From Candidatus Heimdallarchaeota archaeon (GTDB lineage Archaea; Asgardarchaeota; Heimdallarchaeia; Heimdallarchaeales; Heimdallarchaeaceae): a stretch of DNA of 64,000 bases. The DNA is taken from the NCBI GenBank assembly GCA_019057815.1, contig JAHLWR010000006.1, positions 64,001-128,000 on the forward strand, in the 5' to 3' direction. The position numbers were made by a program, and so were the translations under genes. Below are positions 60,006-62,621 of the stretch, one piece after another (the stretch's first letter is position 1; each line of letters begins with the position of its first letter). Under the pieces are notes generated by a model, which was given only the letters and a program-made list of their open reading frames with translations, ran no database searches and was not told the origin of the DNA.

Positions 60006-61277
60006 CTAGCTAAATTGAAAGGCTTCATTAACCATAGTTTCTAAATTATCTGCTGATTTGATGATTTTTAATAAACCAGATTCTTGTAATTCATAGACAG
60101 CTGGTCGAGGATATCCAAATTGCTCACTCATTGAAAGTGTGTATGCTCCACAGTTTAAAATTACAAGATAATCTCCTTCCTCAATTTTGAAATCAACTGA
60201 TTCATTTGATAAAACGTCAACAGGAAGGCATAAAGGCCCACCTATGCGGCAATATTGTCCTTTTCCTTTATCTTGCATTGGAAGGACTCCATAATTGGTA
60301 TACCGCATAGGAATTAGAGTGTTGGCACCAATGTCTGTAAATGCCCATTTTCTCCCCCAAGTTTTTTTTGTTCTCAACACTTTAGTTATAGCGATGAAGC
60401 TGTCTCCAACAAAATAACGCCCAAGTTCAAAAATGATCAATTTATTGTCAATATTAGAAATTATATCAGTTATTTGGGATCCTAATTTCTCTAAACTAAA
60501 CCCATTAGATTCTAATTCAGAGCGTGAAGTTAAACCTCCACCTAAATTGATTTCTTTAATTAGAATTCTGTGGTTTTGTTCTAGTTCTTTGATATAATCA
60601 TCTAGAAATCTTAAAAGCTCTTCATAAAAACTGTGAGACGCAATATTGGTTCCAACATGGACATGAACTCCTAAAGGTTCTAAGAATGGGCTTTCGCTAG
60701 CATATCTGTAAAGTTTTACAGCACGCGCAAAATCTATTCCCAGTTTACTGTTCTTTTTAATTAACATTCTTTTTTCTGTTTCTTTTCTTAAATTAGGGTG
60801 TATTCTGACTGTAACGTGTTGAATTTTATCACTTTTTTCCGCTATTTTTTCTATCAGTTTTAATTCATTAATCGAATCAACATTTACTCTATCAATCCCT
60901 AAATCAGATGATAATTGCAATTCTTCCTCAGTTTTAGCAGGTCCATTGAAGATAATATCTTTAGCGTTAAACCCGCATTTCTCAGCAAGTTTTAATTCAA
61001 ACATGGACATAACTTCAACACCCATACCAACATTTTTAGCTACTGATAGCACTCTACCAAGATAATTGGATTTTACTGCATAAGAAATCATTAAATTCGA
61101 TATATTCTTTGATAAAGACACTTTAAGATGATTATAATTATCTTCAAAATGTTCAGGTAAGAAAACAAAGAAAGGCGTTTTTATATTCTTAGTACTGCTC
61201 TCAATAGATGCTCCACTAGCATAAAGAACATTGTTTTTGTATGATAAATATGAATATTTCTTCACTAAATTTTTCAT
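60006..61277 (-). CDS. Fold-type III PLP-dependent decarboxylase (LysA/ODC/BtrK/NspC superfamily)
   Basis: YAVKSN (PLP lysine), FNGPAK, SKLG, HVHVGT, NLGGG, ELGRY, GGPLCLPVD, GAYT. Confidence 0.88.
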   Translation of the reverse strand: MKNLVKKYSYLSYKNNVLYASGASIESSTKNIKTPFFVFLPEHFEDNYNHLKVSLSKNISNLMISYAVKSNYLGRVLSVAKNVGMGVEVMSMFELKLAEKCGFNAKDIIFNGPAKTEEELQLSSDLGIDRVNVDSINELKLIEKIAEKSDKIQHVTVRIHPNLRKETEKRMLIKKNSKLGIDFARAVKLYRYASESPFLEPLGVHVHVGTNIASHSFYEELLRFLDDYIKELEQNHRILIKEINLGGGLTSRSELESNGFSLEKLGSQITDIISNIDNKLIIFELGRYFVGDSFIAITKVLRTKKTWGRKWAFTDIGANTLIPMRYTNYGVLPMQDKGKGQYCRIGGPLCLPVDVLSNESVDFKIEEGDYLVILNCGAYTLSMSEQFGYPRPAVYELQESGLLKIIKSADNLETMVNEAFQFS

Positions 61278-61457
61278 TACTTTCTACCTAAACAGACCTT
61301 ACTGAGTTTTTAATATATGACAATTGTGTTTATCTGCTTAATTAGTTTGTTTACTTCTAGTAATTTAGTTTAAAATAGCATAGAATTTTCCATTTAAGTT
61401 TTATCAGTTTATCGTTCTAGCCACTAGATTTTTGAATGAAATTTCTTTCAGTATATT

Positions 61458-62621
61458 ATGGACAGACAACAAATTCAACTTCAACTGTCCGAAGTTCAAG
61501 ATAAAGTACTTTTAAGCGAGGGTGTACGAGGACTACTCAAATTTTTAGCTGTTATTGATCGCTTTCCAAATTCGGGAATACGAAGAATATCACGAGAAAC
61601 AGGTTTTCCAGTTCCTATTTGCGTCGCAATAAGAAATGAGTTCGTAAAGAAAGGTTGGTGTAAGAAAGGTAACGGAACTGTTGTGACTTCTGAAGGAAAA
61701 GATATTTTTCTATTTTTCAGCTCGCAGAATACAAGTTTTAGATGTGGAAACTGCGAAGAATATGGTGTGTTTTTCCCATTAAAGAACTATGAAAAAGAGT
61801 TAGAATTAATTAAGAAGTACACCCAATTAAGAGGACAACCAGATACAAAAATAGATCAGTCTTTCGCTACATCTCGAACTAGTCTATATAGAGCGCTCTA
61901 TATGATTCATAACTATGATCTGTTTTCAGGTGATTTTGCTTTAGTAGGTGATAGTGATTTAACAAGCATTGCAATCTCTCAATTTATCCCGAAATCTTCG
62001 AGAATAACGGTGTTTGATATTGACTCTAAACTTGAAAATATTATTAACACTGCAAACAAGGAACTTTCAAACAAGATTGAGTTTGTAAAACACGATTTGT
62101 ACCAACCTATACTAGAATCTTATCATGGAAAGTTTACGTGTATACATACAGATCCACCTTATACCAAGCAAGGATGTAAATTATTTATATCGAGAAGTGT
62201 AGATTTGATTAACAAAAAAACAGGTGGAGCAATATATTTGTCTTTTGGGAATAAACCACCAGTTGAAATGAAACAAATACAAGAAGATCTTCTAAAAATG
62301 GGTTGTGTAATAACTAATATTCTCCCTAATTTCAACAAATATATTGGTGCTCAAAAACTAGGCGGTGTTTCGACCTTTTATAGATTACAAGTTATTCCTT
62401 CAGCAATCCCTATCATAGATGGTAGATATGAAGGTATGCTTTACACAGGGGAAGTCAACCCCACTATTAGAAAATATAAATGTCAAAATTGCAATAGGAC
62501 AACAACTGTTGGAATTACAGAAGAGTTTTCAACAATTGAAGAGCTAAAAAATAAAGGGTGTCCCAAGTGTAAGATGAGCTCTTTTACAAAGATTAGCGAA
62601 AAAAAGAGGGAAGAATTTTAA
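61458..62621 (+). CDS. BpsA-like (DUF43) branched-chain polyamine synthase/aminopropyltransferase homologue
   Basis: N-terminal wHTH; IDQSFAT...R, VGDSDLTSIA, VFDID, HDL, TDPPYT, LFISR, FNKY; C-terminal CQNC...CPKC. Confidence 0.75.
   Translation: MDRQQIQLQLSEVQDKVLLSEGVRGLLKFLAVIDRFPNSGIRRISRETGFPVPICVAIRNEFVKKGWCKKGNGTVVTSEGKDIFLFFSSQNTSFRCGNCEEYGVFFPLKNYEKELELIKKYTQLRGQPDTKIDQSFATSRTSLYRALYMIHNYDLFSGDFALVGDSDLTSIAISQFIPKSSRITVFDIDSKLENIINTANKELSNKIEFVKHDLYQPILESYHGKFTCIHTDPPYTKQGCKLFISRSVDLINKKTGGAIYLSFGNKPPVEMKQIQEDLLKMGCVITNILPNFNKYIGAQKLGGVSTFYRLQVIPSAIPIIDGRYEGMLYTGEVNPTIRKYKCQNCNRTTTVGITEEFSTIEELKNKGCPKCKMSSFTKISEKKREEF

Follow-up and report, generated by a model that had tools for sequence, protein, structure and literature searches.

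Introduction

Spermidine synthesis has been described via two routes, the SpeD/SpeE pathway and a carboxy-polyamine pathway that draws on aspartate semialdehyde (PMC12979288, PMC10407285). The latter, in its carboxyspermidine (dehydrogenase CASDH, decarboxylase CASDC or NspC) and carboxyaminopropylagmatine (CAPADH and CAPADC) forms, adds a C4 unit by reductive condensation, and a fold-III pyridoxal phosphate (PLP) enzyme then decarboxylates the carboxylated intermediate. Here we describe a divergent gene pair, encoding a fold-III PLP decarboxylase and a transferase that resembles BpsA, in a 64,000-nucleotide stretch from a Candidatus Heimdallarchaeota archaeon (GenBank assembly GCA_019057815.1, contig JAHLWR010000006.1, positions 64,001 to 128,000 of the forward strand; hereafter the window, numbered from its first letter). 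We propose that this pair may make spermidine by transferring a 3-amino-3-carboxypropyl (ACP) group from intact S-adenosylmethionine (SAM) and decarboxylating the product afterwards.

The branched-chain polyamine synthase BpsA (EC 2.5.1.128; T. kodakarensis 5xnc, T. thermophilus 6j27) forms N4-branched polyamines and needs decarboxylated SAM (dcSAM), whose aminopropyl group is held by salt bridges to Asp159 and Asp160, residues that position it and are essential (PMC12979288). In spermidine synthase, an analogous Asp is thought to push away SAM's carboxyl group, and its loss allows SAM to be used (PMC3725402). A transfer-then-decarboxylate order has likewise been proposed for MccD and MccE in microcin C synthesis in E. 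coli, where an alanine-racemase-fold PLP enzyme would remove CO2 once ACP has been transferred from SAM (PMC10491745, PMC7857480). Taw2/TYW2 of wyosine synthesis is also a class I fold that moves ACP from SAM, but it belongs to another transferase family and its acceptor is tRNA.

A divergent gene pair conserved in Heimdallarchaeaceae

The decarboxylase gene (60006-61277, minus strand) encodes 423 aa with the alanine-racemase-fold domains PF02784 and PF00278, and the transferase gene (61458-62621, plus strand) encodes 387 aa of a BpsA-like class I SAM-dependent alkyltransferase (PF01861, E 6e-41). They diverge from an intergenic region of 180 bp, start to start (61278-61457). A preliminary description of this locus had reported both open reading frames (ORFs), a GGPLCLPVD loop in the decarboxylase, and in the transferase a GDSD motif, a CGNC pair, an N-terminal winged helix-turn-helix (wHTH)-like unit and a C-terminal zinc ribbon; the ORFs lie at the coordinates it gave, and the other features are all present.

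Our family sample comprised 31 genomes, two of which, Ca. Heimdallarchaeum aukensis and endolithica, are closed; the window's own genome is 95% complete. In 27 of the 28 family loci the two genes lie next to each other in divergent orientation, the exception being cut by a contig end, and the spacing between their starts is similarly short. The pairing is thus not due to chance. Named homologues come from Heimdallarchaeota or Heimdallarchaeaceae.

A BpsA-like transferase with an altered GDDD motif

The best Protein Data Bank matches of the transferase, by sequence and by fold, are the BpsA structures 5xnc, 2qm3 and 6j27, and its predicted model (pLDDT, the predicted local distance difference test, 91.4) matches the BpsA fold. 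It has in common with BpsA the Pfam family, the fold, an N-terminal helical unit, the first CxxC, GDxD and DPP. Its N-terminus forms a three-helix and hairpin unit, the wHTH-like element, followed by CGNC at residues 96-99 and the BpsA_C domain. Canonical Thermococcus BpsA aligns over the same N-terminal helical region and first CxxC, and relatives that have GDDD share the C-terminal zinc ribbon (CxxC...CxxC, Cys342-Cys371, with pairs at 342-345 and 368-371; 62481-62570, plus strand); judged by these alignments, the wHTH, CxxC pair and ribbon do not mark the GDSD form.

BpsA's essential GDDD is here GDSD (residues 164-167; 61947-61958, plus strand). Ser166 aligns with Asp159 of T. kodakarensis BpsA (numbering of PMC12979288), and this Ser is kept in nearly all close family homologues, with Gly in one; the active-site geometry we refer to is taken from review and alignment rather than from coordinates. 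The zinc ribbon stands where BpsA has an acidic carrier tail and is net basic, the last 60 aa holding 8 acidic and 12 basic residues. BpsA also depends on a dcSAM supply, whereas the genome studied here has no match to SpeD or SpeE, which leaves it with no known source of dcSAM and no known spermidine synthase. By sequence and model, the protein belongs to the BpsA structural family yet departs from BpsA in its motif, its tail and its donor supply, and we propose that it is an ACP transferase that uses intact SAM.

A fold-III decarboxylase distinct from LysA

The decarboxylase model (pLDDT 90.6) has a fold like that of diaminopimelate (DAP) decarboxylase, and alignment indicates that the PLP lysine Lys69, His207, Gly246-248, Glu284, Arg287, Cys350 and Tyr379 are retained. 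Cys350 lies in the loop GGPLCLPVD (residues 346-354; 60216-60242, minus strand) and is followed by Leu351, at the position where LysA has Glu and the ornithine and arginine decarboxylases (ODC and ADC) have Asp. DAP decarboxylases are the best profile and structure matches, yet the protein falls under all NCBIfam cut-offs (247 bits against 298 for lysA, TIGR01048; 44 against 409 for nspC, TIGR01047) and lacks the Arg of the LysA specificity helix L[IM]RP. A tree of 52 proteins places it in a 100/99 clade that is separate from LysA, SbnH, BtrK-like enzymes, ODC, ADC and NspC. Forced union with LysA is rejected (approximately unbiased (AU) test, p=1e-4), but a tree joining it to NspC, whose branch is long, is not rejected (p=0.12).

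The preliminary description had held that this is not LysA, and the reference motifs on which it relied (C-E in LysA, C-D in ODC-like enzymes, C-L in NspC, C-T-P in BtrK-like enzymes) hold in the sequences we fetched. We reject the LysA identity on the C-L in place of C-E, the score below the cut-off, the AU test and the DAP pathway genes not found (below). The ODC/ADC motif has Asp after the catalytic Cys (PMC7857480), which the C-L here lacks.

Likening the Leu to that of NspC fared less well. The residue is there, and C-L is common to both enzymes, but the residue varies, to C-Q in one paired homologue and C-I in a related enzyme, so that the shared trait is a non-acidic residue after Cys, and the match to NspC's Leu is, on these sequences, probably convergent. 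In the best tree the 100/99 clade includes the N-terminal domain of MccE, with C-F at the specificity site, and the family profile matches MccE at E 4e-30 and NspC at 3e-11. MccE forms a long branch, and one tree excluding it from the clade is rejected (p=0.043), another not (p=0.13). By profile and tree MccE appears to be the closer characterised relative, a placement that is not statistically secured. We propose that the enzyme decarboxylates an ACP intermediate.

The clade also holds enzymes lacking the catalytic Cys, whose genes in two Asgard families (f25 and f26 of our sample; L140:5346-7389, L139:5260-7286, L134:4771-6855) directly follow one for a Taw2/TYW2-type ACP-transferase homologue. 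These enzymes may decarboxylate ACP-wyosine to an aminopropyl base.

Polyamine genes present and missing

No SpeD was found in any of the 31 family genomes, nor in the window's genome by Pfam, tblastn or a custom hidden Markov model, in keeping with the preliminary suggestion that SpeD is bypassed. SpeE likewise has no match in the 31 genomes, the window's included. A search for the eukaryote-type SAM decarboxylase PF01536 gave no match, as it did in control genomes, and is therefore uninformative. DapF has no match in the 31 genomes, or in 61 counted more widely, and DapB none in the window's genome, Asd is present in 1 of 31, and a partial aspartokinase query gave no match; neither DAP nor aspartate semialdehyde therefore appears to be made. 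Two saccharopine-dehydrogenase-family genes (PF16653) are present, whose scores of 44 and 34 bits fall far short of the CASDH cut-off, 800 bits; both being remote from CASDH and Asd not found, we rejected them as a CASDH partner. In Heimdallarchaeaceae, then, neither known source of the aminopropyl group is found, while deoxyhypusine synthase (DHS) is kept.

The window's genome has DHS, agmatinase and TiaS, a single fold-III decarboxylase, and a divergent homologue of pyruvoyl arginine decarboxylase with a Ser-Ser site. The pyruvoyl family is matched in 28 of the 31 genomes. The two closed genomes have no pyruvoyl enzyme, which led us to consider the pair's decarboxylase for that role, but a distinct SpeA-like gene (about 590 aa) is present in both and the idea was dropped. 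With separate pyruvoyl or SpeA-like genes present, the agmatine supply is covered without the pair's decarboxylase. In Ca. H. aukensis the SpeA-like gene occurs twice, about 3 kb apart (L190 and L192; G004 C1:1149906-1153648), one copy lying in an 886-aa frame.

SpeD and the motif aspartate across Asgard archaea

BpsA-like proteins match in 161 of the 379 Asgard genomes that made up our wider sample, and the view that BpsA is largely restricted to thermophiles therefore stands for canonical BpsA but not for its relatives. Outside the family, 121 of 130 BpsA-like carriers also have SpeD (lists compared by hand). SpeD is fused C-terminally to the BpsA-like protein in families f5 and f19 and lies directly upstream in f6, and the two fused or linked SpeD domains that we tested pass the SAM decarboxylase cut-off. 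GDDD is found in every SpeD-linked copy read, including 12 of 12 SpeD-fused proteins among 150 library representatives. Of the nine carriers without SpeD, six lack the motif Asp (GDGD in G381, GDSD in G168, GDFD in G035, GDYD in G122 and G127, no motif in G131); the three that keep GDDD are 74-87% complete and come from a family with unlinked SpeD.

The motif Asp is replaced in all decarboxylase-linked copies. Distant homologues of the decarboxylase (33-42% identity) have GDGD BpsA-like genes in their vicinity in four further arrangements: the genes overlap by 4 bp on a contig of 72% GC (L073), are convergent (L069 and L074), or share one contig at a distance of about 16 kb (L071/L128). SpeD has no match in the genome of L069/L079. 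In a tree inferred with the motif column left out, and weakly resolved in its backbone, the motif state changes five times or more. Across Asgard archaea, losing the Asp159 equivalent tracks loss of SpeD. One protein, L131:4666-6102 (P0318), has GDAD and a decayed fused SpeD domain without the Ser-His cleavage motif; it sits among SpeD-fused GDDD proteins in the tree and is possibly an evolutionary intermediate.

SpeE occurs in 37 of the 379 genomes, with none in f6 or f18, 1 of 22 in f5 and 10 of 129 in f19; weak PF01564 matches in relatives were judged not to be SpeE. It is present in f10, f11, f23 and f24, which carry canonical-looking BpsA without a zinc ribbon. Because f5, f6, f18 and most of f19 have SpeD and the GDDD relative but no SpeE, this BpsA-like lineage probably works as a spermidine or aminopropylagmatine synthase there. 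GDDD-SpeD fusions are widespread in Asgard genomes lacking SpeE (L040:6291-7670, L168:1047-2465 and many others in f5, f19 and G308) and are candidate single-chain spermidine or aminopropylagmatine synthases.

Discussion

From linkage, motif changes, gene absences and phylogenetic placement, we infer a chemistry, a step order and an acceptor as follows. The BpsA-like enzyme would bind intact SAM, since Ser or Gly in place of Asp159 would no longer oppose the SAM carboxylate; it would move the ACP group to an amine and release methylthioadenosine (MTA), and the PLP enzyme would then decarboxylate the carboxyaminopropyl intermediate to leave an aminopropyl group. The acceptor would most likely be putrescine or agmatine. 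With putrescine, carboxyspermidine would give spermidine directly; with agmatine, carboxyaminopropylagmatine would give aminopropylagmatine, which agmatinase could convert to spermidine for DHS. The loss of Asp together with that of SpeD argues for a donor change from dcSAM to SAM, and ACP rather than methyl transfer is suggested by the linked decarboxylase, which gives a carboxylated product a fate. That the pair is such a SpeD-independent spermidine module, with transfer to putrescine or agmatine preceding decarboxylation, is the reading we favour, by a modest measure. The genomic tests put forward in the preliminary description came out as predicted and support its reading; step order and acceptor are the conjectural parts.

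The proposed route would have the same net result as SpeD/SpeE, an aminopropyl group from SAM with release of MTA, in the opposite order and with neither enzyme; sister Asgard families couple SpeD to a GDDD relative of the same transferase. Compared with the carboxy-polyamine routes, the decarboxylation step would be alike, but Asd and a true CASDH were not found here, and the decarboxylase is far from NspC. Like MccD/MccE, the pair links a SAM-fold transferase gene to one for an alanine-racemase-fold decarboxylase, without SpeD, and it would work in the way proposed for microcin C. MccD nevertheless shows no detectable similarity to the BpsA-like profile (hhalign E 0.41), no microcin genes occur among the ORFs flanking the pair, and the phosphate acceptor of a secondary metabolite in microcin C would be exchanged for what is likely an amine of primary metabolism. 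The Taw2-linked sister decarboxylases differ from ours in lacking the catalytic Cys.

Other explanations account for part of these observations. In one, the steps are reversed: the PLP enzyme would be a non-homologous SAM decarboxylase that makes dcSAM for an ordinary aminopropyltransferase. The decarboxylase does occupy SpeD's place beside the same transferase lineage, and a hydrophobic residue after Cys suits a substrate without a nearby side-chain amine; a dcSAM donor, however, gives no reason to lose a residue as essential in BpsA as Asp159 (PMC12979288), nor does it fit the division between Asp in SpeD-linked copies and its replacement in decarboxylase-linked ones, and we think this order unlikely. 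The same transfer-then-decarboxylate chemistry might instead act on a glycan, lipid, protein or RNA. In the window and in G012 the pair heads glycosyltransferase and deacetylase genes that lie close to one for an exosortase-like protein, the substrate of MccE is a peptide-nucleotide, sister enzymes follow Taw2, and the transferase carries a wHTH-like unit and a zinc ribbon. Set against this, the sugar genes are missing from the flanks in G004 and G005 although the pair and its YkgJ neighbour remain, GDDD relatives with the same accessory domains are tied to SpeD in genomes without SpeE, and for a genome in which DHS and agmatinase are retained no second way to spermidine turned up; a non-polyamine acceptor is in our estimate a minor prospect.

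The transferase could also have turned into a methyltransferase, comparable to plant putrescine N-methyltransferase, with the decarboxylase separately supplying an amine as an ornithine, lysine or arginine decarboxylase. A single Asp-to-Ile change makes spermidine synthase a weak methyltransferase (PMC3725402), and the protein has weak methyltransferase family matches and a DPPY motif. Yet DPPY is also present in GDDD, SpeD-fused copies, the replacing residues are small (Ser, Gly) rather than bulky, separate arginine decarboxylases exist, and the spermidine supply would be left unexplained, so that we give this version rather poor odds. Hardest to sustain is the view that the decarboxylase is either a diverged LysA or the carboxyspermidine decarboxylase partner of a CASDH, beside an unrelated BpsA-like gene. 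The DAP decarboxylase matches, the C-L common to NspC, the unrejected NspC-joined tree and the two saccharopine-dehydrogenase-family genes speak for it; the lysA score, the rejected LysA clade, the missing DapF and DapB, the near absence of Asd, the lack of an aspartokinase match (partial query) and the low dehydrogenase scores speak against it, as does a separate C-E lysA in both G168 and G381. We consider it very improbable.

Several observations weigh against the ACP-transfer route to spermidine that we prefer. Genomes in our samples are kin, so their counts are not independent. Non-Asp BpsA-like proteins without a linked decarboxylase exist (short GDMD/GDFD paralogues and GDYD fusions), as do related decarboxylases without a BpsA-like neighbour (L072, L204 and L205). 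Loss of the analogous Asp in plant spermidine synthase yielded a methyltransferase, not an ACP transferase (PMC3725402), and in the MccD/MccE system the opposite order has not been entirely excluded (PMC10491745). MccE's placement is not firm, its grouping with LysA, SbnH and BtrK not being rejected (AU p=0.13). Because BpsA's acidic C-terminal carrier residues are missing, a ping-pong mechanism cannot be assumed, and the position of the window pair at the head of a glycosyltransferase cluster is compatible with a non-polyamine acceptor.

Taken with these points, the pair is real and conserved, and it probably represents an alternative polyamine route that uses a variant of known chemistry. 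It offers a testable answer to the question of where Heimdallarchaeaceae, which show neither described route, obtain the spermidine for the DHS they retain. A wider claim is that a BpsA-fold enzyme and an MccE-like PLP decarboxylase form a third, undescribed spermidine route that took over from SpeD in Heimdallarchaeaceae and in a few further lineages, that many other Asgard archaea use the GDDD form with SpeD in place of SpeE, and that one active-site Asp acts as the switch between dcSAM and SAM as donor; this we hold tentatively, at a little under even chances. If true, transfer-then-decarboxylate chemistry, so far proposed for microcin C, would enter primary metabolism, the BpsA fold would reach beyond the branched polyamines of thermophiles, and a one-residue rule, Asp as opposed to Ser or Gly, would predict dcSAM or SAM use. 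The sparse occurrence of SpeE in Asgard genomes makes this relevant to the polyamine enzymes of the archaeal host of eukaryotes. The pair is undescribed in the open-access literature that we searched, a coverage outside which subscription papers fall.

Neighbouring genes and related architectures

Directly downstream of the decarboxylase lies a gene for a YkgJ/CxxCxxCC protein (59463-59990, minus strand; PF03692), which follows it in 27 of 28 family loci, the exception again being a contig end. YkgJ also adjoins a GDND BpsA-like gene in L129 and was not seen at the decarboxylase/BpsA-like loci L069, L073 and L074; it is apparently a conserved but not obligatory companion of the pair. Beyond it, a glycosyltransferase and polysaccharide-deacetylase-like cluster faces an exosortase-like membrane protein (window 54131-59460) in which Cys, Arg and His motifs were recognised by eye and which has no Pfam match. 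A glycan-island function as the core role was dropped, given the differing flanks in G004 and G005. A sigma-70 scan of the 180-bp intergenic region found no promoter above shuffles, with a bacterial-type consensus that is unsuited to archaea. Prediction of a complex between the decarboxylase and the BpsA-like protein scored 0.00, which counts neither for nor against their pairing.

Most family genomes and some others of the same order encode a second, short BpsA-like paralogue of about 284 aa, with GDMD or GDFD and a zinc ribbon but no wHTH (L121:8553-9404 in G000 C42, L059:5977-6822, L180:2403-3260); in the tree it groups with the non-Asp forms, and no decarboxylase is linked to it. In L208 (G127) and L210 (G122), genomes without a SpeD match, a GDYD BpsA-like domain is fused to a long C-terminal region that by eye resembles the C-terminus of KsgA/Dim1. 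Zinc-ribbon BpsA-like proteins with GDDD are also fused to GNAT, acyl-carrier or lysylphosphatidylglycerol (LPG)-synthase-like domains (P0183, P0189, P0204, P0212, P0220), suggesting tailoring roles. At L076:6759-9598 a GDND BpsA-like gene overlaps one for a carbamoyltransferase, with QueC and a radical SAM gene close by. Finally, in L111:2822-7527 (f5) the genes for a fold-III decarboxylase without the Cys, for deoxyhypusine synthase and for TiaS form an operon that diverges from the agmatinase gene, and its decarboxylase probably represents an unrecognised clade of arginine decarboxylases.

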